From a bacterium (GTDB lineage: Bacteria > SAR324 > NAC60-12): a stretch of DNA of 64,000 nucleotides. Shown here piece after piece: positions 52,517 to 61,705 of the stretch. The translations under genes were made by a program, and so were the position numbers. The notes under the pieces are model-generated. The model made no database searches, was not told where the DNA came from, and saw nothing but the letters and a program-made list of their open reading frames with translations. Position 1 is the first letter of the stretch. Every line of letters starts with the position of its first letter. Location of the stretch: NCBI GenBank assembly GCA_965205865.1, contig CBDBHR010000030.1, positions 992,001 through 1,056,000 on the forward strand, in the 5' to 3' direction.

Positions 52517-52884
52517 ACCTGAGTTCGAGATAAGAATTTTGCAGTACCTTCGCGGGACTCGTCGCTCGGGGCAAGACGAGCATGGTGTGATTTTACGGGT
52601 TCAAACTGCATCTGGTGGCCAATGATTCCGGGGAGCTTTTAGCTTTTTTCCTCAACACGGGCATGAGAAAACGCTTCATTATTGAAACCATCAACGACCA
52701 ACTGAAAAATATTTCACAAATTGAGCATTCCAGACATCGTAGTGTCAAAAACTTTATGGCTGATTTACTCGCCGGCTTAATTGCTTATACTTGGCAACCG
52801 AAAACCTGCCAACCGACGCTCAATATAGGATTGAAAGAGGCGACGCAGCTTCAAATCATTTAGCTCGTTATCTCGAACTCGGGT
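52517..52884 (+). mobile_element. Internally deleted IS982-family element
   Basis: Terminal inverted repeats ACCTGAGTTCGAGATAA / TTATCTCGAACTCGGGT; fragments FYGFKLHL and [24 protein letters not shown]. Confidence 0.8.
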
Positions 52885-52989: not shown

Positions 52990-53510
52990 GCTAAGAATTG
53001 CGGGAATCGATTCTATGAATATTTTCTAAAATGATTTGGGGCAGTTGCTCGCCAAAGTACTCCGTACCATGTGTTTTACTGTTTCCAAACAGACCGGCAT
53101 AGACAATTGTTCCGTCTGTGAAAGAGGCGACGCAGCTTCAAAACTCGAACGGAAAACACATTCCGTCGAGGTTGTTTGTACCATTCAAATGCGACCATGC
53201 CATCAGGTTCCACGGCAACTTCCGGTGCCGGAATTGTGCAACTTCCGGTGCCGGGTAACATATCAAGAAATCTCAGCGATTCTTCACAAGATTTCCTATC
53301 TATTCTTTTAGCGCCATAACCATCCCAATCGTCCTCACTGCATTCCGCGATGGCGTTCCACAAAGCCCTGAGTGTTTCCCTGTTCATCACTTCTATCCCC
53401 CCAACATGGCTGCGATGTCTGGTGGCAGTTTGACCCCGTTTTTCTGCTCGAAGTCTGCCACGCTTTTGTAGTCGTTATGAAATGCGGCGACGATATCCAC
53501 CCCCTTGCCT
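52990..53510 (-). pseudogene. Second relic of the TPR tail plus DDWDGYGA gene
   Basis: Similar to about 44460-44960, with small internal duplications and frameshifts. Confidence 0.7.
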
Positions 53511-53558
53511 TTACAGTAGTTAGATCTGAATGGTTTGTGACGGACCACTTGAGAAATA

Positions 53559-55058
53559 TTACAAAGTTTCAAAGAAATGCTGAATGTATTGTATGATAAC
53601 AGGATTGCGTAACCAAGGATTTTGTAACTCAAAAATTCTCCGGTTCGTCCAACTTTCCCACGATGTTTCCATTTGTCCGCGTGTGACATTTAAGCTGGTC
53701 CATAGTTCTTCGATCTCTGTCTGATCTCGAAGCATTGAGATTGCACGCATGCTTATGTCTTCTCCTTCGTAAATAAAAACTAATGGGACATTAGGAAACC
53801 AATGGGCGTTTGTACTCAACATTTCTTGCTTACCAGAAGCAATTATCGCCGCTAATTCGTGAATGTGAAGCGCTACATAATATGCAACCAGTGAAGATCG
53901 GTATTCCAAGTCATCCGTAAATATTTCAGATAACCATTCCCATCTTTCATAAGCGGAAATTATATATTTCCAACTTTCACCAGAATTTTCACCGAGTGAT
54001 TTACATACGCCCATCAGTCTATACTCTTCCCATATATCACAGAATACAGCATCGTTATAGGGTGAAGGAACTTTCACTTTCGCAAGTGCCAGGGCCAGGT
54101 TTATTTGCTTCGTACTGAGACTCAAAGCACCGTGCAGACTATGGTACACGTATCCAAGAGCGTTGGGAATATCAATCCAGACAATGTAACCACTGCGATT
54201 CCATTCAGCAATGTTGAGCAGGTCATCAAGCAAAGACTTTTGATCTTTGAATTGGTCTCTGCCGGATTCGACCCCCGCTAGTGCCACGGCAATCAGGGGC
54301 GAGACAATATCAACCGCTTTATCCACTACCTGAACCAAATCTTTTTTTTCTGGGAGTTGTTCCTCTAATTCATTTTGCCGCCATTGTACAAAAGATTTGA
54401 AGATACCTGGCCGAATGCGTTTGAGGAGTTGTCGCCACCCAAGTACATCTGCGGCACGGGCTAAATCAATTGCTGTTGAGTATGCTTGCGTCACGGATTC
54501 GACCCGATCCGGGATTTCAGGGGGTTGAGTTTCTGATCTCGTAAAAGGCGGTGCTTCTTCCCCGGAAGGAAGTCTGGCAAATGGACTTTTGCCCAGATTC
54601 GGTTTCTGTACCATTGGCACTTGGTGGAGTTCATGGAGCAATACTTTGAATTTTTCATCGAATTGACTCTCATCTGTAAAGTCGATATAAATTCGTGTTC
54701 CGAAAAATACTGGCACTTTTTCTTTTCCTGAAGCCTGACGAACTATAGGAATAAACTTGTTGGTTCCCAAGTCCTGAACAAGCTGCGCCGTCACAATGAG
54801 CCTTTCATATCCGACTCCACCTTCGCCGGCGCTCGCCTTTCTCACGTAACTGTCCGTACAGATGACCAAAACCCTGCCGGAATCCTTGACGCCAGCGTCG
54901 ATGAATCGAGTCATATCATCTCCCGGGTGGAGGTCCCACTGGTCAAGTATAACGTCAATGCCGTTGTTACGCAGTTTTGCGCCAAGTTCTGATACCCATT
55001 GTTTATGCGTTGGTGAGTCGTGAGAATATGAAATAAACACTTTGGGATATTCTGTCAC
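53559..55058 (-). CDS. SEFIR/TIR-domain protein with an uncharacterised helical C-terminal region
   Basis: PKVFISYSHDS...VILDQWDL...GGVGYE...KFIPIVR. Confidence 0.85.
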   Translation of the reverse strand: MTEYPKVFISYSHDSPTHKQWVSELGAKLRNNGIDVILDQWDLHPGDDMTRFIDAGVKDSGRVLVICTDSYVRKASAGEGGVGYERLIVTAQLVQDLGTNKFIPIVRQASGKEKVPVFFGTRIYIDFTDESQFDEKFKVLLHELHQVPMVQKPNLGKSPFARLPSGEEAPPFTRSETQPPEIPDRVESVTQAYSTAIDLARAADVLGWRQLLKRIRPGIFKSFVQWRQNELEEQLPEKKDLVQVVDKAVDIVSPLIAVALAGVESGRDQFKDQKSLLDDLLNIAEWNRSGYIVWIDIPNALGYVYHSLHGALSLSTKQINLALALAKVKVPSPYNDAVFCDIWEEYRLMGVCKSLGENSGESWKYIISAYERWEWLSEIFTDDLEYRSSLVAYYVALHIHELAAIIASGKQEMLSTNAHWFPNVPLVFIYEGEDISMRAISMLRDQTEIEELWTSLNVTRGQMETSWESWTNRRIFELQNPWLRNPVIIQYIQHFFETL

Positions 55059-55218
55059 TTTTTATCTCCGGTTTCGAAAGGAACGAGTCATAACACCAGT
55101 CTCTTCATGGTATGTTGCAGATAGATATTTCTCTCTTGGATTTTAACCGATCGAGGGTAGATCCTCAAGGGAATGTCCCAATCGATATAAAGAGAACAAC
55201 AGTCGGCTATCTATGAGA

Positions 55219-55247
55219 TTGACACTCTGAATGTTGATTGCTATATT
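55219..55247 (+). promoter_or_regulatory. sigma70 promoter of the Ubl operon
   Basis: TTGACA-17 bp-TATATT. Confidence 0.7.
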
Positions 55248-55315
55248 TTGGATTGTTACTCACTATAGTGGTCGGGCGATAATTTTTGGAACAGTTTGAC
55301 ATCAGGAGACCTAAA

Positions 55316-55573
55316 ATGGCTGAAAAGGAAAAAAACAAAGAGAGTCGTTCTTTTAAGCTCAAAGTGAATGGCATTGAAATCGACGTTTCGTGTCAGAAAC
55401 TCATTGCGAAAGACATTTTGAAACTCGCAGAAGAAAAAGGAGCTATCCCCGGTAAAGCGGAAGATTATATCTTGCAGGGAGACAAAGGACAGTATAAAGA
55501 CGATGACTTGGTCGATCTGGAGGAAGACAACCTATTCATTACGATTCCCGACAAACCCACCCCGATAGCGTAG
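55316..55573 (+). CDS. Ubiquitin-like (multiubiquitin-type beta-grasp) protein
   Basis: FKLKVNG...ILKLA...YIL...DDLVDL...FIT pattern; AGGAG RBS; first gene upstream of E2 and E1. Confidence 0.72.
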   Translation: MAEKEKNKESRSFKLKVNGIEIDVSCQKLIAKDILKLAEEKGAIPGKAEDYILQGDKGQYKDDDLVDLEEDNLFITIPDKPTPIA

Positions 55574-55585
55574 CCTTTTCTTAAG

Positions 55586-55960
55586 ATGTCCAACAGTATC
55601 GAACAGGTAATAGCCGAATTGGAAGCCTTGGGGCATGAGACCTCGCTGTTTGATAGCCCACAAGGAAAAGCGGTTTCCTTCGACTACACCGTCGAGACAG
55701 GTCCCTACAAAGGTAAACAAGTCAGGCTGGGCATCAGCTTCCAGGGAAGCGAACGTTATCCCGAATATCCCCCCCACTGGATTCATGTATCTCCGCCAAT
55801 TGACGATGGCAGAGGCGGCGTGGTCGAAAAATACGACGTAAACGGGCGCGAATGGCTCGCAATGAGCAGACCTCCTGGGGAAATATGGGACCGGCTACCG
55901 ACAAAGCACATGGCTGCTTACCTGAACGAACATTTACGACGAATCTGGAAAAACGTATGA
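55586..55960 (+). CDS. Prokaryotic E2/UBC-like protein without cysteine
   Basis: YPEYPPHWIH and WLAMSRP motifs; position between Ubl and E1. Confidence 0.7.
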   Translation: MSNSIEQVIAELEALGHETSLFDSPQGKAVSFDYTVETGPYKGKQVRLGISFQGSERYPEYPPHWIHVSPPIDDGRGGVVEKYDVNGREWLAMSRPPGEIWDRLPTKHMAAYLNEHLRRIWKNV

Positions 55961-57390
55961 GGTTCGAGACGGTTCTCACCGCCGAGGCGGATTCAACCTC
56001 CAGCGAGCACTTGTTGCAGCATTACCGGGGCAACAAAATTCAGGAAGATCTTTGCTTCGCCCTATGGCGTCCTTCTACAGGACGGTTGCGCCGCACCGCG
56101 TTGATTGACGAAATCATACTTCCCCAAGAAAGTGAGCGTATCCTGCATGGTAATGCCAGCTTCGAACCACACTACCTCGCGCGGGCGATGAAAATAGCGC
56201 GTAAAAAAAAAGTGGGTCTGGCTTTTATGCATAGCCACCCGAATCCTGGATGGCAGGGGATGAGTTGTGCTGATATCGAAGCAGAGCGGGATGTTCTGGC
56301 GTACCCGGCGGGGGCGACGGGCTTACCGTTGGTGGGATTGACAATCGGTACCGATGGTTATTGGAGCGCGCGCTTCTGGGAGAGAGACGCCAGCAAGTCG
56401 GGTGAGCAGGTTGGACAAATGCGCCGTCATTGGTGCGAGAAAGTTCGCGTCGTCGGACCCCAGTTCTACAAGAATTACTTCAATGACAATATCGCGCCTT
56501 CCCCGCTGCGGAGAAATATTCTCAGGCGTACTTTCGACACATGGGGACGCGAATCGCAAAACACGATTGCACGTTTGAAAGTTGGTATTGTCGGACTTGG
56601 CAGCGTCGGTTGCATCGTCGCGGAAGCCATCGCTCGAATCGGAATCGCGCATATTACGCTGATCGATCCTGATAAAGTCGAAGAGCACAACCTCGACCGT
56701 CTGCTTTACGGAACTATAAAGGATATCGGTAAATTAAAGGTTGATTTAGCGGCGCAAGCGATGCGGCGAAATACTACCGCAGAAAGCATCCAAATAACTA
56801 CTTTGCCGGTTTCAGTTCACAACGAATCGGCTTATAAAGCCGCCCTGGATTGCGACGTACTTTTCAGTTGCGTCGACCGGCCGGTTGCCCGAGACGTTTT
56901 GAATTATATCGCGATTGCTCATTTGATTCCGGTCATTGATGGCGGAATTGCCGTAGAAACCGACAGACGACAAGACCGCTTGTTTTCGGCGCATTGGCGT
57001 GCGCACGTCGTCACGCCGTATCATCAATGCCTGCGTTGCAACGGGCAATACAATTCCAGCATGGTGGTAATGGAATTGGACGGGTCGCTCGACGATCCGT
57101 CTTATATCAGCAATTTGCCTCCTGAAGAGCGGGGCGGTAACCAGAATGTTTTTCCATTCAGCTTGGGCGTTGCCGGGATGGAAGTGAATTTGATGCTACG
57201 CTACCTGCTCGCCTGCGAGTGGTGGCCATTGGTGGGACAACAGGACTACCAATTCGTGGCCGCTGGAACACGCATCATCAATGGTGAATGTCACCCCAAC
57301 TGCTCAATCCATCAACGTCGTGCGCAAGGGGATGCGGAAAACCCACACTACTTAATCGCAGAACGCACGGAATCGCCAAAATCCGGATAG
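55957..57390 (+). CDS. JAB/MPN peptidase fused to a ThiF/E1 adenylation domain
   Basis: QED...MHSHP...MSCAD (JAB); VGLGSVG, DPDKVEEHNLDR, SCVDR, CLRC and a C-terminal CxxxC (E1); ATGA overlap with E2. Confidence 0.88.
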   Translation: MRFETVLTAEADSTSSEHLLQHYRGNKIQEDLCFALWRPSTGRLRRTALIDEIILPQESERILHGNASFEPHYLARAMKIARKKKVGLAFMHSHPNPGWQGMSCADIEAERDVLAYPAGATGLPLVGLTIGTDGYWSARFWERDASKSGEQVGQMRRHWCEKVRVVGPQFYKNYFNDNIAPSPLRRNILRRTFDTWGRESQNTIARLKVGIVGLGSVGCIVAEAIARIGIAHITLIDPDKVEEHNLDRLLYGTIKDIGKLKVDLAAQAMRRNTTAESIQITTLPVSVHNESAYKAALDCDVLFSCVDRPVARDVLNYIAIAHLIPVIDGGIAVETDRRQDRLFSAHWRAHVVTPYHQCLRCNGQYNSSMVVMELDGSLDDPSYISNLPPEERGGNQNVFPFSLGVAGMEVNLMLRYLLACEWWPLVGQQDYQFVAAGTRIINGECHPNCSIHQRRAQGDAENPHYLIAERTESPKSG

Positions 57391-57412
57391 CGTACAATTT
57401 GGCGACACTTCG

Positions 57413-58868
57413 TCAAGATTTTCTATAAGGTATCGAGGACATCTTGATTTCTGGACCAAGCAATCCTGCCTTTTGAAGCAAGATTTTGAGGCAATTGCGA
57501 ACATTATTGGGATCAGGCACACGTGGACCTAGTGTGATCAAGCTATCTGAGTCTAATATCTCTTTAACTCGGAGAGCCTCGTCCTCGTAGTAGTGTCTTA
57601 TGCGAGTAGGTATATTGCTTTGGCCCTTGTAGTCAATAAAGATCCTGTCTTTATCAGTATCTGATTCTGGAATAACAAAACGGCATTCGTTTTCATACTG
57701 GTACGCTTTATCCTTAAACAAATATCGGATCTTTTCCAAGTATCCTACAATTCTCCCTACCAATTTTTCTTGAACATCTATAATTGGTTGTCCGCTAATG
57801 CTTACCAACGGATTCAAAGTTTCATATAAAGTATCCAAGACAGACTTCGATGGCTAAAAAAGTAGTGTCTTATGCGAGTAGGTATATTGCTTTGGCCCTT
57901 GTAGTCAATAAAGATCCTGTCTTTATCAGTATCTGATTCTGGAATAACAAAACGGCATTCGTTTTCATACTGGTACGCTTTATAGCCTTAAACAAATATC
58001 GGATCTTTTCCAAGTATCCTACAATTCTCCCTACCAATTTTTCTTGAACATCTATAATTGGTTGTCCGCTAATGCTTACCAACGGATTCAAAGTTTCATA
58101 TAAAGTATCCAAGACAGACTTAAGAAGCTGATCAGTACGCTTCACCTCATCAGTGCCATATAGGACTCTCAGCAATCGATTACCCGGGACGCTTAGCTTT
58201 AAAGAGCAACCTTCGCCATCTTTTCCGTAGGCACACCAATACACGAGGTCGTCGCTCACATCCCTTTCAATATCGGGACATGGAGCAATGAATGAGGTGA
58301 TATAAGCATGAGGCGCGTTTCTTGCTTTCAACAATTCATGTTCTTTCACGAGGTTCAGATTCCGGTTAAAATATATACCTTCATCCGGGTCGTTGAAATG
58401 GACGGAATCATACAATCTTAAAGAAGCGCTTCGTCCTTCCACAGAATCTACCAAGTTCATTAAGAGAGAGTTCAACTCGTCATAGAATCCCAATTTAGCA
58501 GTCCGTCTTTCCATCAAAGCGTTTCTATGTACTGGTTCATCATAGTACTCTTCGAATAATTTTCGCAACGATTCGATCCGTCTTTCCACTGAAGCATTCT
58601 GAAGCATGGATATGAGTGTATCGAGACTCGTATAGTGAATGACAGAAACCTTTTTCCTGCTTTCATGTTCCTCGAACCTGTGACGATTTTCGATTTTGTA
58701 GAGCAAGTTTTTCAACACCTCATCCAGCGCTGGAAAAACAATTTCGGTTACATACAACATACCTTGTTCAGGATTTCTTTCTAAGTATTCAGGATTTTTC
58801 TTAAAGTGTTGCAGACCTGCTGTTACTTGCGCTTTTAACTTTTCCATTTTCTCATCTGTATTGCTCAC
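57413..58868 (-). pseudogene. DUF2971-family protein disrupted by an internal ~260-bp duplication and a frameshift
   Basis: HYTS, NDPDEG, YITSF, WCAYG, YENECRF; 57589-57847 duplicates 57861-58121. Confidence 0.75.
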
Positions 58869-59019
58869 TCAGTTACTCCTTATGGCTGGGCGAAGTTGCT
58901 GTCTTGGTATAAAACCAATTCGCCAGTGTAAACATAATTATGTGTCAATGCTGTCCTTTAAGTATACGAAACTACAAGGGATCTTAACGGATATAATCTT
59001 CCAGGTGATTCGTAGAAAT

Positions 59020-61705
59020 TCATACCTGCTGTCTCGTCAACATGGCCGCAAGGTCTGGCGGCAGTGTGATCCCATTTTTCTGTTCGAAGTCTTTCACGCT
59101 TTCGTAGTCGTTTTGAAATGAAGCGATGATGTCCACCCCCCTTTCTCTGGCAGCAGTCAGATCGGATCTGGCTTTTTCCCATTCTTGCAGATGTAACCAG
59201 GCCTCGCCACGATTGTGATAAGCCTTGCCATCATCCGGTTTCAGTTCTATGGCATTGTCAAAGTCCAAGATGGCATGCTCATAATCACCTTTTCGGTAGT
59301 AAGTAACTCCGCGATTGTAATAAGCTTCAGTATCATCTGGATTTAGTTCTATGGCCTTGTCACAGTCTGCGATGGCACGGTCAAACTCTCCTTTATGGCC
59401 GTAAGCAGTGCCACGATATTTATAAGCTTCAGCATCACCCGGATTTAGTTCTATGGCCTTGTCACAGTCTGCGATGGCACGGTCATGCTTTCCTTTACAA
59501 ATATAAGCAGTGCCACGATATTTATAAGCTTCAGCATAGTCTGGTTTCAGTTCTATGGCCTTGTCAAAGTCCAAAATGGCACAGTAATGCTCGCCTTTAT
59601 GGCCGTAAGCAAGGCCACGCTAATATCCTTAACTCTCTGTTGTAATAAGCTATAGCATCATCGGGGTTCAGTTCTGTGACCTTGTTATAGTCTGCAATGG
59701 CACGGGCAGATTCACCTGTTTTGCTGTAAGCATTTCCACGATTCTTATAAGCATTGTCAAAGTTTGGATTTAGTGCTATGGCCTTGTCAAAATCCACAAT
59801 GGCACAGTCATGCTCGCCATTACGATTGTAAGTGATACCGCGGCTGTAATAAGCTTCAGAATCATCTGGTTTCAGTTCTATGGCTTTGTTAAAGTTTGCG
59901 ATTGCATGGGTATACTCTCCTTTATAGTCGTAAGCATATCCACGATTCTTATAAGCTTCAGAATCATCTGGTTTCAGTGTTATGGCCTTGTCAAAGTCAA
60001 CAATGGCACAGCCATGCTCTCTTTTATGGCCGAAAGCAAGGCCACGGTTGTAGTAAGCCTTGGCAAAGTTTGGTCTCCGCGCAACTGCCTTATAATAATC
60101 CTGAATTGCATTGTCATACTCGCCTATATTGCTATAAGCATTGCCACGATTGTTATAAGCCTCGGCAAAGTCTGGTTTTAGTTCTATGGCCTTGTTAAAG
60201 TCTGCAATAGCAGGGGCAGACTTCCCTGTCTTGTTGTAAGCACTGCCTCGGTTGTTATAAGCTTCGGCATAGTCTGGTTTCAGTTCTATCGTCTTGTTAA
60301 AGTCTAGAATTGCACGGTCATGCTCGCCTTTACGGTCGTAAACAAGACCACGATTGAAATAAGCCACGGTATATTCTGGGTTCAGTGCTATGGCCTTGTT
60401 ATAGTCTACGATGGCACGGTCGTGCTCGCCTTTACGGCCGTAAGCAAGACCACGGCTGTAGTAGCCGGCTGCATCATTCGGGTTTAGTGCTATAGCCTTG
60501 TTATAGTCTGCGATTGCACGGTCATACTCGCCTTTATCGAAGTAAGTAGCACCACGATTTATATAGGCTTCGGCAAAATTCGGGTTCAATTCTATGGTCT
60601 TGCTATAGTCTGCGATAGCACGGGCAGACTCGTCTGTATTCTTGTAAGCAAGACCACGGTTGTAGTAGCCGGCCGCATCATTTGGGTTTAGTGCTATAGC
60701 CTTGTTATAGTCTGCGATAGCACGGTCATACTCCCATTTATCAAAGTAAGCATTGCCACGGCTATAGTAACAGGCTGCATCATTTGAGTCCAGTTCTATA
60801 GCTTTGTTCAAGTCCTTGATGGCACGGGCAGACTCACCAGTATTGTTGTAAGCAACACCACGATTCATATAAGGTAAGGCAAAGTCTGGTCGCATTGCTA
60901 TGGCCTTGGTACAGTCTTGAATGCTATGGTCATACTCGCCTGTTTTGCCATAAACACCACCACGATTCGTATAAGCCTCGACAAAATCTGGTTTCAGAGT
61001 TATGGCCTCAGTGTAATGACATATAGCTTTGTCGTGATCTCCTTTGTCTTGGCAGGTCAACCCTTTATAAAACTCCATATTGGCACTCCGGTGTATGTCG
61101 CGATGTTTGATGAATCCCTGAAGGTCGTTGTAGATGGTTGCGGTAGACAAACCATGGTACTTTTGCAGGTGCTCCAAGATAGGTTGTTTGAGGTCTTTCG
61201 GGATAGAGATTACATCGTCTGGTTCAAGAAAACCCTGCGGTGGTCGCACGAAGAGGCTCTTTTGGGCGATTACGCGATTTCTGGGATTCAGAGGATGATT
61301 GATGTGTTTTTCTACCGGTTCCCTTTTTTGCAAGATAATCCTTCCGTCTCTGTCCTGGGAGCCGTCGCAGGCGAAGAAAAGGGCTATGAGGTAGTCGGTC
61401 GTAAAGTCGATCAGGTTGGTTTTTCCGCCAAAGTGTTGCAGTTCGGTCAGGATTTCAAATTCGTCGTTTTCGTGAGTATACTTTTTAGCCTCTTTCAGAA
61501 TTTCCCTTTGGACAGCCTCTATATCAAAATGCTCTGACTCAACGCCATATTCACGGTAGAGGCTCGAGGAGACTTTCTCGTAGCATTCTGGTTCGCCGCG
61601 GTAAATGCAGTCACCGTCGGCTGATTTTTCCGCAATCTCGTGGATTATTTCCAAAACCTCGCTGAGTGAGTCGCTTTGAGTATTGGATGTGTCTGGTGCG
61701 TTCAT
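59020..61705 (-). pseudogene. FRG-domain plus multi-TPR protein split by a 19-bp insertion (ORFs 59597-61705 and 59020-59574)
   Basis: YRGE, LQHFGGKTNLIDFT, IALFFAC, RVIAQKSLF, then many 34-aa TPRs; the 702-aa upstream part may still be expressed. Confidence 0.85.

Follow-up and report, generated by a model that had tools for sequence, protein, structure and literature searches.

An alanine-ended ubiquitin-like protein in a putative Bub-related conjugation operon of a SAR324 bacterium

The ubiquitin-like proteins (Ubls) known to undergo activation by an E1 all have, to our knowledge, glycine as their last residue. In the stretch of SAR324 DNA analysed here (64,000 nt, hereafter the window), a gene for a small Ubl that ends in alanine is followed by genes for an E2-like protein and a JAB-E1 fusion, and the question is what kind of system these genes encode. 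The Ubl is a beta-grasp protein with a conserved x-Val/Ile-Ala end, the E2-like protein is a cysteine-free protein of the UBC fold, and the JAB-E1 protein is homologous to BubCD with its sites intact. The operon probably encodes a Bub-related module for Ubl conjugation, from a separate and as yet uncatalogued clade that we call VA-type.

Layout of the operon

The features of the locus are listed in Table 1. A 12-nt spacer lies between the Ubl gene and the E2 gene, and the ATG of the JAB-E1 gene overlaps the E2 stop codon (ATGA). A first-pass annotation had described an 85-aa Ubl with a PTPIA end and no terminal Gly, a 124-aa Cys-free E2-like protein with the motif WLAMSR, a coupled JAB-ThiF fusion with intact HSH...S..D and GLGSVG motifs, and a consensus promoter, and all of these were found in place. 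The motif residues of the fusion are H92-S93-H94...S103..D106, and the promoter sequence matches the consensus at 11 of 12 positions, with TG ahead of the -10 box. Seven promoter-like sites occur between 54900 and 59000, the mean for shuffled sequence being 6.9, and only this one, the best of the seven, scores above 9/12. The terminator-like hairpin has 8 pairs, 3 of them GC.

Table 1. Features of the operon and its surroundings (window positions, or residues where stated)
Feature	Position	Strand	Remark
DDE transposase remnant (IS remnant)	52615-52863		last 31 positions of DDE transposase model
SEFIR/TIR gene	53559-55058		long open frame
Sigma-70-like promoter	55219-55247	+	TTGACA / 17-nt spacer / TATATT, extended -10 TG; consensus match only
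Ubl gene	55316-55573	+	85 aa, C-terminus ...DKPTPIA-stop
E2-like gene	55586-55960	+	124 aa, Cys-free, WLAMSR with Ser94
JAB-E1 fusion gene	55957-57390	+	477 aa
JAB/JAMM domain	~residues 1-180 of JAB-E1		E30, H92, H94, S103, D106
E1 domain	~residues 190-477 of JAB-E1		GLGSVG 213-218, R248, D307, CxxC 358/361, C445/C449
Terminator-like hairpin and T run	57398-57417	+	8 nt past E1 stop; pattern match only
Convergent DUF2971-family (predicted ART-like) gene	57413-58868	-	split in this assembly
DUF2971 fragment, 141 aa	57413-57838	-	aligns to residues 212-352 of the L001 protein
DUF2971 fragment, 332 aa	57870-58868	-	aligns to residues 1-253 of the L001 protein
FRG-TPR gene	59597-61705		long open frame

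The order of the Ubl, E2 and JAB-E1 genes was identical in all 29 related loci, which argues that the operon is more than a chance arrangement. Measured against the closest relative (L001), dN/dS was 0.38 for the Ubl, 0.22 for the E1 and lowest for the E2 (0.09). The locus had been read as an intact three-gene unit; the three core genes are indeed intact and keep their order, but a DUF2971 gene is linked to them in 27 of the 29 loci (it is absent at L010 and L021), so that the unit does not consist of these three genes alone.

The JAB-E1 fusion and the alanine end of the Ubl

The best PDB sequence match of the JAB-E1 protein was Citrobacter BubCD (9ea4_A, E 5.5e-24), which has the same fused architecture (477 vs 458 aa) and aligned over JAB residues 37-103 and E1 residues 202-336; with Pseudanabaena BubCD it shares 27% identity over residues 39-417 (E 8e-28). 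The JAMM and adenylation residues are invariant across 30 E1s. As in Bub, the E1 crossover loop (residues 362-400) lacks Cys and holds an invariant Tyr, Tyr383, found in 30/30 E1s and retained by the actinobacterial relatives within DDP(T/A)YI or DNPGYI. Tyr383 is a candidate counterpart of BubCD Y370; the pairwise alignment with Pseudanabaena BubCD sets it one column from a Tyr. In the E1 tree, the VA-type sequences formed a clade (93/90) separate from that of canonical Bub (100/99). Among Pfam models, ThiF matched residues 193-363 (E 4.5e-32), while Prok-JAB (PF14464) did not match the window protein but did match the one canonical control E1 scanned.

Two other assignments of the fusion were rejected. 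A sulfur-carrier function of the ThiF/MoeB kind was discarded because all NCBIfam ThiF/MoeB models scored far under their cut-offs (best TIGR02356, 74 bits against 275); the partner Ubl, in contrast to the GG-ended ThiS and MoaD, has a terminal Ala and is accompanied by an E2 and a JAB domain. A CBASS assignment was discarded as well, since PADLOC matched the ThiF part only, through its E1-E2 (Cap2) models (best E 2.2e-18), and gave nothing for the Ubl or the E2-like protein. The Bil and ISG15-like models of PADLOC matched no window protein. Present Pfam and PADLOC models detect neither the E2 nor the JAB domain, so that VA-type operons are for now annotated only as "ThiF family" and hypothetical proteins.

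For the two small proteins, profile searches of the PDB gave only chance-level rows (best E 0.051 for the Ubl; best E 1.5 for the E2-like protein, BubB not appearing), and a fold comparison was therefore needed. The Ubl model (pLDDT 83.1) is a single beta-grasp domain, with strands and helix within residues 13-78, a low-confidence N-terminus (residues 1-8), and a tail, DKPTPIA, running to Ala85. In the fold comparison (VIA) it matched 9d5b_A (Z 8.7) and BubA (9eav_C, Z 8.1, rmsd 2.5, 67 aligned), and its best Foldseek match was again BubA (9ea8_B, E 3.4e-3). The beta-grasp fold supposed for this small ORF is thus borne out, its nearest neighbours being BubA and multi-ubiquitin proteins. Pfam Multi_ubiq (PF14452) scored the window Ubl below threshold (E 0.13; 12.9 bits, cut-off 24.5) and matched 3 of 31 family Ubls at E <= 0.01. 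An hhalign comparison of the Ubl profile with BubAB was discarded, as it aligned the wrong region (probability 1.8%).

The Ala end is a family trait and not a peculiarity of one copy. Residues N18, G19, A43, L53, T82 and A85 are invariant in the Ubl alignment (A2). In the 29 related loci, 28 of the 34 Ubl copies stop exactly at x-V-A, five loci have tails of 2-8 residues beyond the Ala, and at L002 the Ubl continues in frame into the E2. A survey of homologues, one of the checks proposed for this locus, gave the same picture: 110 of 120 database representatives are Ala-ended, the other 10 carry x-V-A plus a tail of 1-13 residues, and none has Gly at the terminal-Ala column. The VA end also occurs in all six actinobacterial plasmid operons, whose E1s are 35-41% identical, and the clade with Ala-ended Ubls spans at least eight phyla. 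Eleven longer representatives are Ubl-E2 fusions with TPVA, PLA or TPVS at the junction. In contrast, the Gly conserved in Bub was present in the Ubls of all four canonical controls (L031, L036, L038 and L039).

Such occasional Ubl-E2 fusions, a feature shared with Bub, imply processing by the JAB domain. Two actinobacterial Ubls end in GGVA, and trimming of VA by the JAB domain to expose Gly was considered; it was rejected because TP, TQ, AP or AD precede VA in most Ubls, and tails and fusions start directly after the Ala. The sole precedent that we found for Ala at an adenylated residue is the CD-NTases of type II CBASS, in which a C-terminal Gly or Ala is conserved according to a commentary (PMC10449767) on the work of Jenson et al.

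The linked DUF2971 gene and the cysteine-free E2-like protein

The gene that converges on the operon belongs to a family with the invariant residues H78-Y79-T80, S-F and E260/E262/R264 (E-x-E-x-R). These seem to fit the H-Y-E type motif given in one study (PMC12522546) for DUF2971 (PF11185), a predicted DarT/AbiGi-like ADP-ribosyltransferase family. At E <= 0.01, PF11185 matched 12 of the 23 proteins in the linked family (best 6.3e-6); the L001 copy fell just short of the cut-off (20.0 bits, cut-off 22), and 25 of 30 ESM-Atlas feature matches were DUF2971 clusters. The L001 member differs in carrying an additional helical N-terminus of ~70 residues.

This N-terminus is a predicted binding site for the Ubl. 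Three predictions of the Ubl-DUF2971 complex gave ipSAE values of 0.73, 0.73 and 0.74, against 0.00 for the best control; in a calibration set up differently from the present predictions, which used three chains and custom alignments, 116 of the 157 solved complexes attained the mark applied, as did 2 of the 215 mismatched pairs. The runs have at least 44% of contacts in common, with a partner pLDDT of at least 78, and place Ubl residues 16, 18-20, 44-46, 54-56, 73-78, 80 and 82-83 against DUF2971 residues 10-47. A control in which only the E2 was swapped, the Ubl and the DUF2971 protein being kept, also gave 0.00, although the confident interface consists of these two proteins only. With its N-terminal helices predicted to hold the Ubl, and with the gene linked to the operon where BubE is absent (see below), the DUF2971 protein is the best candidate for a target, reader or regulated effector of the module. 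The abstracts and passages of the DUF2971 literature that we found contain no tie to Ubl systems.

The predicted contact also bears on a different reading, in which the Ubl acts chiefly by regulating the DUF2971 enzyme non-covalently, in the manner of an antitoxin or chaperone, and the JAB-E1 and E2 serve to set the amount of free Ubl through processing, adenylation or self-conjugation and not to tag foreign targets. The predicted interface, with its separation from the controls, involves the Ubl tail and its beta-sheet face (residues 44-46, 54-56 and 73-83), the linkage is nearly constant, and the H-Y-T and E-x-E-x-R residues are kept in what is predicted to be a relative of DarT, itself the toxin of toxin-antitoxin systems. 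The beta-sheet face and tail are also the face that Ubls use for E1 binding. However, L010, L021 and six actinobacterial VA-type operons (no DUF2971 within 2.5-4 kb flanks) keep Ubl, E2 and E1 without this gene, which indicates that the core module works without it; convergent orientation is atypical of toxin-antitoxin pairs, and the E2-swap control scored zero. We consider a mainly regulatory Ubl unlikely, and conjugation remains the preferred reading.

In the assembly, a tandem duplication (57589-57847 / 57861-58121, with repeats spaced by 274 and 272) interrupts the DUF2971 gene. A public contig (run X1) joins 57711 to 57986 and thereby has an un-duplicated, open form of 393 codons, and none of the public contigs compared covers the duplication junction (57744-57928); as contigs collapse repeats, this missing coverage neither proves nor excludes the duplication. 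It is thus possible that the split arose in assembly or belongs to a minority allele.

Conjugation through the E2-like protein would depend on a nucleophile other than Cys. Its model (pLDDT 89.0, pTM 0.81) has a UBC fold lacking the two C-terminal helices, and the top match in the fold comparison (VIA) was BubB (9eav_D, Z 8.8, rmsd 4.0, 114 aligned), followed by E2, UEV and Atg3 chains at Z 5-8, in agreement with the UBC-like nature proposed for the middle ORF. Foldseek returned no match for this model at E <= 0.001. Prok-E2_E (PF14462) did not match the window protein at the gathering cut-off, and at E <= 0.01 it matched 2 of 46 family members against 4/4 canonical E2s. Across these 46 sequences, down to 36% identity, only P59, P63, H64, S94 and W101 are invariant, with His64 in PPHW and Ser94 in MSRPP (motif S-R-P-P). 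A weak hhalign alignment (E 0.0024, probability 12%, 42 columns) sets YPEYPPH...W.AMSR on the BubB sequence YPDAPPD...WQRWSRH, placing Ser94 on the Ser of WSRH, Pro96 in the His column of Ser-x-His and His64 in the Asp column of PPD; BubB Asp299 maps ambiguously, to either of two columns. The Ser of WLAMSR, put forward earlier as nucleophile, therefore holds up as a candidate position, being one of five invariant residues and aligned with the BubB Ser.

It might be argued that the E2-like protein is instead a non-catalytic adaptor of the UEV/RWD kind, with its Ser and His structural or used for binding, and that the E1 itself passes on the Ubl or goes no further than its adenylation. The protein has no Cys at all and lacks the accessory His of the Bub Ser-x-His, UEV domains are among its fold matches (Tsg101 Z 6.0, VPS37A Z 5.2, Vps23 Z 5.2), and the "6E" E2s were formerly predicted to be inactive (bioRxiv 10.1101/2024.11.21.623953). 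Nevertheless, BubB, the closest fold match, has the same Cys-free arrangement and was shown to be catalytic through Ser333, Ser94 and His64 are among the few residues that never vary, and the E2-like gene has the lowest dN/dS of the three. An adaptor role is thus improbable.

By analogy with the biochemistry of the Citrobacter Bub system, a catalytic E2 suggests the following pathway: i) where the Ubl is tailed or fused to E2, the JAB domain would cut directly after the Ala, ii) the E1 domain would adenylate the carboxylate of Ala85, iii) the Ubl would pass as an oxyester to Tyr383 and then to Ser94 of the E2, and iv) it would end up on a target lysine. We infer the activation of Ala and its transfer via Ser from this analogy.

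Relation to known systems and genomic setting

The Type I Bub operon, formerly "6E.1"/DUF6527, encodes BubAB, BubCD and BubE (Ye, Gong, Chambers and Corbett, bioRxiv 10.1101/2024.11.21.623953; PDB 9ea4, 9ea8, 9eae, 9eav), and according to these authors bubE is present in all Bub operons. Their catalogue was compiled from operons with DUF6527, so that VA-type operons are not expected in it. Besides the JAB-E1 features described above, the window operon shares with Bub a Multi_ubiq-like beta-grasp Ubl, an E2 of truncated UBC fold that lacks Cys and has an invariant Ser within W-x-x-x-S-R, and a setting of mobile elements and defence islands, in which ImmA/IrrE-type regulators adjoin the actinobacterial relatives. 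It differs in five respects: i) the VA-type Ubl ends in Ala (Ser in some distant fusions), ii) Ubl and E2 are mostly separate genes, whereas they are fused as BubAB in Type I, iii) the E2 has Pro at the His of the BubB Ser-x-His, and PPHW, with its invariant His64, stands in place of the BubB PPD, iv) the Pfam models Prok-E2_E and Prok-JAB match the canonical Bub proteins but not those of the window, and v) DUF6527/BubE is missing and a DUF2971 gene is linked instead. The second difference is not a strict one, since Ubl and E2 are likewise separate in the canonical DUF6527 operons L036, L038 and L039. As to the fifth, DUF6527 (PF20137) gave 0 matches in the window's own genome, which is 91.9% complete, the Caulobacter control being positive, and it was absent among 129 flanking ORFs of 28 loci. 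The proposal that this is a Bub-like variant therefore fits, its nearest matches being BubA, BubB and BubCD, with the correction that DUF6527/BubE is missing.

Two other known systems were compared. Type II CBASS, with Cap2 and Cap3, likewise combines E1-type adenylation of a protein C-terminus ending in Gly or Ala with a JAB peptidase, but its CD-NTase is absent here, where the substrate is a dedicated beta-grasp Ubl, and Cap2 is an E2-E1 fusion with catalytic cysteines and not a JAB-E1 fusion. The antiphage system Bil (BilABCD, bacterial ISG15-like) resembles the module in having Ubl, E2, JAB and E1 in a single locus in a defence setting, and in an E2 thought to choose targets without an E3; its JAB and E1 are separate, however, and its E1 has tandem adenylation domains and a Cys domain (IAD-AAD-CYS), working with a Cys-using E2 and a Gly-ended Ubl (bioRxiv 10.1101/2024.11.21.623953), whereas the window has a single ThiF domain fused to JAB. 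A literature search on bacterial multiubiquitin and Prok-E2 systems returned only papers on eukaryotic multiubiquitination.

An Ala conserved throughout a clade raises the question of how the E1 pocket, the JAB peptidase and an oxyester relay accommodate a side chain on the reactive residue, and an Ala-ended tag could be orthogonal to Gly-specific deconjugases. In place of BubE, the clade has a tightly linked enzyme that is predicted to be ART-like and to bind the Ubl through its N-terminus. This offers a concrete candidate effector or target, which bears on the open role and targets of the Bub pathway: the authors of that work report that canonical Bub has so far given no phage protection and that its targets are not known (bioRxiv 10.1101/2024.11.21.623953). 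More tentatively, the VA-type module might represent a fourth bacterial kind, an orthogonal Ala-Ubl pathway with a Tyr/Ser oxyester relay in which the Ubl is read or delivered by the N-terminal helices of DUF2971 and tagging is coupled to ADP-ribosylation in a mobile immune module; we regard this as possible but doubtful.

In the window, bSEFIR, TIR and FRG-TPR genes adjoin the module. Restriction-modification, DarT, TIR, GmrSD or FRG neighbours were present in 14 of 28 loci, the other 14 having no recognizable defence neighbour. The module was found in metagenome-assembled genomes from many phyla, often in defence islands, and must be horizontally mobile, since the phyla are mixed in the tree. 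This movement between phyla and the frequent location in defence islands make an anti-phage or stress role most likely. That several neighbours are pseudogenes, as had been stated, holds for the transposase remnant and, in the assembly, for the split DUF2971 gene, but the SEFIR/TIR and FRG-TPR genes are open, as is the DUF2971 form on the public contig. The DUF2971 duplication of 274 bp, the nearby IS remnant and the mobility of the module might suggest that in this genome it is a decaying element carried along by a mobile defence island, with a broken partner and no present function. This is very unlikely, because the core genes are all open with every invariant residue kept and dN/dS of 0.09-0.38, and the partner is open on a public contig, the junction being uncovered. 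The sister group of the VA-type clade is carried on actinobacterial plasmids.

Gene organization and annotation of the operon

The Ubl, E2-like and JAB-E1 genes of the window are tightly packed on the + strand and are preceded by a promoter-like site which was the top scorer among the 7 detected in a scan of positions 54900–59000. The first-pass annotation had described a three-gene operon with a promoter, an Ala-ended Ubl, a cysteine-free E2 with a WLAMSR motif and a fusion with intact JAMM and GLGSVG motifs, and all of these elements were found in the window. The fusion has the JAMM residues (E30, H92-S-H94, S103 and D106) and a GLGSVG nucleotide loop, and both motifs are unchanged in all 30 relatives compared.

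Features of the operon and its surroundings (positions in the window; L001 is the closest relative of the module)
Feature	Position	Strand	Remarks
IS remnant	52615–52863	+	82-aa ORF, matching only the final 31 positions of the DDE_Tnp_1_3 transposase model
Promoter-like site	55219–55247	+	TTGACA, 17-nt spacer, TATATT; 11/12 consensus matches, TG extension
Ubl	55316–55573	+	85 aa, C-terminus DKPTPIA
E2-like protein	55586–55960	+	124 aa, no cysteine, WLAMSR present
JAB-E1 fusion	55957–57390	+	477 aa, ATG overlapping E2 stop
Terminator-like hairpin	3' of E1 stop	+	pattern match
DUF2971 part	57413–57838		aligns to L001 212–352
DUF2971 part	57870–58868		aligns to L001 1–253

The Pfam scan gave only ThiF for the fusion (E 4.5e-32), with no JAB match, and no match for the E2; Multi_ubiq was below threshold on the Ubl (E 0.13). 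PADLOC returned only Cap2-type E1-E2 models, which matched the ThiF part. An NCBIfam ThiF/MoeB identity of the fusion was rejected, the scores being far under the cut-offs.

Relationship to the Bub pathway

The Ubl-like and E2-like assignments made at first pass agree with the predicted models. The Ubl model (pLDDT 83.1) is a β-grasp whose top VIA matches, 9d5b_A (Z 8.7), 9cd2_B (8.6), 9d59_A (8.3) and 9eav_C (Z 8.1; rmsd 2.5, 67 residues), are multi-ubiquitin and BubA structures, with ubiquitin, NEDD8 and ISG15 ranking lower; the best Foldseek match was 9ea8_B (E 3.4e-3). The E2 model (pLDDT 89.0, pTM 0.81) has a UBC fold without the two C-terminal helices, and VIA placed Citrobacter BubB nearest (9eav_D; Z 8.8, rmsd 4.0, 114 aligned), followed by dozens of E2, UEV and Atg3 chains at Z 5–8; Foldseek alone was weak (BubB at rank 2, E 0.068). 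By sequence, the fusion matched Citrobacter BubCD best in the PDB (E 5.5e-24), and the alignment took in both domains.

In Type I Bub, the JAB domain of BubCD cuts the Ubl-E2 fusion BubAB after a conserved Gly, BubCD has no catalytic Cys and an invariant crossover-loop Tyr, and BubB catalysis involves Ser333 with His335 and Asp299 (bioRxiv 10.1101/2024.11.21.623953). The crossover loop of the window-family E1 (362–400) has no Cys and carries an invariant Tyr383 in DDPSYI; this Tyr alone is kept by the actinobacterial relatives described below. Among 46 E2 sequences with identity down to 36%, only P59, P63, H64, S94 and W101 are invariant. Alignment with Pseudanabaena BubAB using hhalign set YPEYPPH...W.AMSRP onto YPDAPPD...WQRWSRH; it is weak (E 0.0024, probability 12%) but falls exactly on the motifs, so that Ser94 corresponds to the BubB Ser. 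The His of the BubB Ser-x-His is replaced by Pro96 in the window E2, and the Asp position is held by His64, the equivalence of the BubB Asp to D299 being ambiguous. A further difference is that bubE (DUF6527) is stated for every Bub operon (bioRxiv 10.1101/2024.11.21.623953), whereas neither the window's genome (91.9% complete) nor the 129 flanking ORFs of 28 related loci contain DUF6527.

A tblastn search of the fusion against plasmids gave 141 records. Six actinobacterial plasmid operons (Nocardioides, two Rhodococcus, M. avium, Pseudarthrobacter and Clavibacter) form a sister group that shares the three-gene set with the window, with E1s 35–41% identical to that of the window and no DUF6527. 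Their Ubls consist of one or two β-grasp domains ending in PVA, PVA, DVA, PVA, GVA and GVA, PPHW and HSR motifs occur in the E2s, and ImmA/IrrE or HigA-type regulators are often nearby. Four canonical DUF6527 operons, also on plasmids, served as controls: Pseudanabaena, listed in the Bub preprint (bioRxiv 10.1101/2024.11.21.623953), Celeribacter, Bradyrhizobium and Acidiphilium. In all four, the Ubl end or junction is a Gly and the E2 contains WSRH. Pfam Prok-E2_E matched 4/4 canonical E2s (E 1e-20 to 1e-53), 0/4 actinobacterial E2s and 2/46 of the wider family, and left the window E2 unmatched. A long branch of the E1 tree sets the canonical clade (support 100/99) apart from a group containing the VA clade, i.e. 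relatives with Ubls ending in x-Val/Ile-Ala (93/90, not starred), and two haloarchaeal forms. As the published Bub catalogue, according to its methods, was assembled from DUF6527-containing operons, the VA-type clade was probably never in it.

The haloarchaeal plasmid loci L035 (Halorarius) and L037 (Haloprofundus) carry a more distant Ubl-E2-JAB/E1 trio with different Ubl tails (…RGQVFI and …KGSGRS), WSR or WSH motifs in the E2, no DUF6527, and adjacent helicase or RNase H-like genes; they may form a separate clade. An S8 peptidase and AAA ATPase pair, possibly a recurrent companion, lies directly upstream of both the VA-type locus L012 (2–3242) and the canonical locus L038 (1–1375).

Distribution of the module and the alanine end of the Ubl

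A scan of one genome per species yielded 29 loci, with E1s 61–89% identical and the order Ubl, E2, E1 kept in all 29. Record titles and the E1 tree assign them to phyla of which eight are named: Latescibacterota, Chloroflexota, Nitrospirota, Pseudomonadota, Acidobacteriota, Binatota, Thermodesulfobacteriota and Actinomycetota. Because the phyla are thoroughly intermixed on short branches of the tree (MAG clade support 98/98), the sequences indicate that the module has spread horizontally in recent times. The dN/dS values against the closest relative were 0.38 (Ubl), 0.09 (E2) and 0.22 (E1). Three of the 29 host MAGs (L015, L024 and L029) bear sponge-derived taxon names (Spongiihabitans, Spongiisociaceae and Poriferihabitaceae).

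The 29 loci hold 34 Ubl copies, with two each in five loci; 28 of the copies stop right after x-V-A, and tails of 2–8 residues beyond the Ala occur in five loci (L015, L029, L022, L023 and L024). In L002 (3366–4004), the Ubl frame has no stop and runs into the E2 (PVA-TIPEMS...), a natural BubAB-like fusion inside the MAG clade. Among the best 120 database Ubl representatives, 110 end in Ala (PVA 80 times, QVA 23 times), the remaining 10 continue for 1–13 residues past x-V-A, and none has Gly at the Ala column. The close homologues therefore end in Ala and not in Gly, as expected if the terminus noticed at first pass were no mutation, and the Ala terminus is a trait of the family. A profile search with the E2 alignment over 1.84 billion representatives turned up just 101 proteins at E <= 0.001; 11 of them are longer, with the E2 placed C-terminally, and their Ubl-E2 junctions read TPVA (3), PLA (1), TPVS (3) and TTVT (1), the others being unclear. 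Since conservation ends at the Ala and is followed by variable tails or fusion, the pattern resembles that of a JAB-processed precursor. The second Ubl genes lie in L003, L004, L006, L008 and L019, and every copy there ends in x-V-A; in L006 (777–1868) and L008 (2521–3616) the second gene sits after the E2, about 390 nt before the E1, where there may be a second E2 copy.

The gene content, homology to Bub, folds, invariant residues, Ala terminus, DUF2971 linkage and mobility are established by the analysis. A scheme is proposed in which i) the JAB domain would cut the Ubl precursor after the Ala, ii) the E1 would adenylate this Ala, iii) an oxyester relay would run from Tyr383 to Ser94, iv) the Ubl would be transferred to a target lysine, and v) DUF2971 would have a role in the module, which may function in defence. 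The only precedent found for Ala at the C-terminus of an E1-activated protein is in type II CBASS, where the CD-NTases have Gly or Ala as their last residue (PMC10449767). The Bub-type Ubl pathway, of which the module is a variant, is already known; neither a clade of Ala-ended Ubls nor a connection of a Ubl with DUF2971 was described in the open-access literature searched.

The DUF2971 gene and the defence neighbourhood

ORF clustering showed that in 27 of the 29 loci (all but L010 and L021) the E1 is immediately followed by a gene of 316–409 aa. This gene is convergent in 26 loci, where its 3' end abuts or overlaps the E1, and co-directional in L024. The L001 member scored 20.0 bits with Pfam DUF2971 (cut-off 22), 12 of 23 members matched the model at E <= 0.01, and 25 of 30 ESM-Atlas feature matches were DUF2971 clusters, by which the gene is assigned to DUF2971. 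A 2025 survey predicts these proteins to be DarT/AbiGi-like ADP-ribosyltransferases (PMC12522546). The invariant motifs (H78-Y79-T80, N-D-P-x-E-G, S-F and E260-x-E262-x-R264) are compatible with an active enzyme.

Complex prediction for the cognate L001 E2, Ubl and DUF2971 gave ipSAE values of 0.73, 0.73 and 0.74 (best of three controls 0.00), using three chains and custom alignments, in both of which the calibration differs; there, the ipSAE mark was reached by 116/157 solved complexes and 2/215 mismatched pairs. The runs share at least 44% of contacts, with partner pLDDT at least 78, and the predicted interface joins Ubl residues 16, 18–20 (including the invariant N18 and G19), 44–46, 54–56, 73–78, 80 and 82–83 to DUF2971 residues 10–47. 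When only the E2 was swapped, the Ubl-DUF2971 score of 0.73 fell to 0.00, even though the confident interface does not include the E2. We know of no solved complex resembling this pair, so that a high ipSAE is unlikely to come from a memorised structure. The modelling thus supports, as a prediction, binding of the Ubl to its DUF2971 partner.

In the window, the DUF2971 gene is split by a tandem duplication of about 274 bp (57589–57847 and 57861–58121; spacings 274 and 272), with copies 99–100% identical. A 2002-nt contig of X1, a public sequencing run, joins 57711 to 57986, and this un-duplicated form is open over 393 codons; 2 letters at 57984 are missing from two contigs of other runs. None of the aligned contigs covers the duplication junction, and since contigs collapse repeats, the duplication could exist as assembled, could represent a minority allele or could stem from an assembly error.

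FRG-TPR (PDC-S15), bSEFIR/TIR (PADLOC 4e-72) and small TIR genes flank the window module, and the IS remnant lies within this island. Clear defence neighbours (type I RM, DarT-Macro, Eco57I or Type ISP, GmrSD, TIR/SEFIR, FRG-TPR, Fic and REase-ARP) occur in 14 of the 28 related loci with flanks, the module often being sandwiched by hsdM and hsdS where type I RM adjoins; the other 14 have only housekeeping, unknown or ambiguous neighbours. In L002, L004, L010, L014, L016 and L027, the module is often inside type I RM operons, with hsdM upstream and hsdS/hsdR downstream, and in L004, L010 and L016 it adjoins DarT-Macro (DarTG) pairs, as though it occupied a cargo slot in defence islands centred on RM. 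Two otherwise different ORFs of the window, 53393–53689 (-) and 59020–59574 (-), the longer encoding a TPR protein, share a near-identical C-terminal peptide of about 25 residues (…DFEQKNG.(K/T)LPPD.AAML…), and a similar peptide is found in an ORF overlapping 58861–59121.
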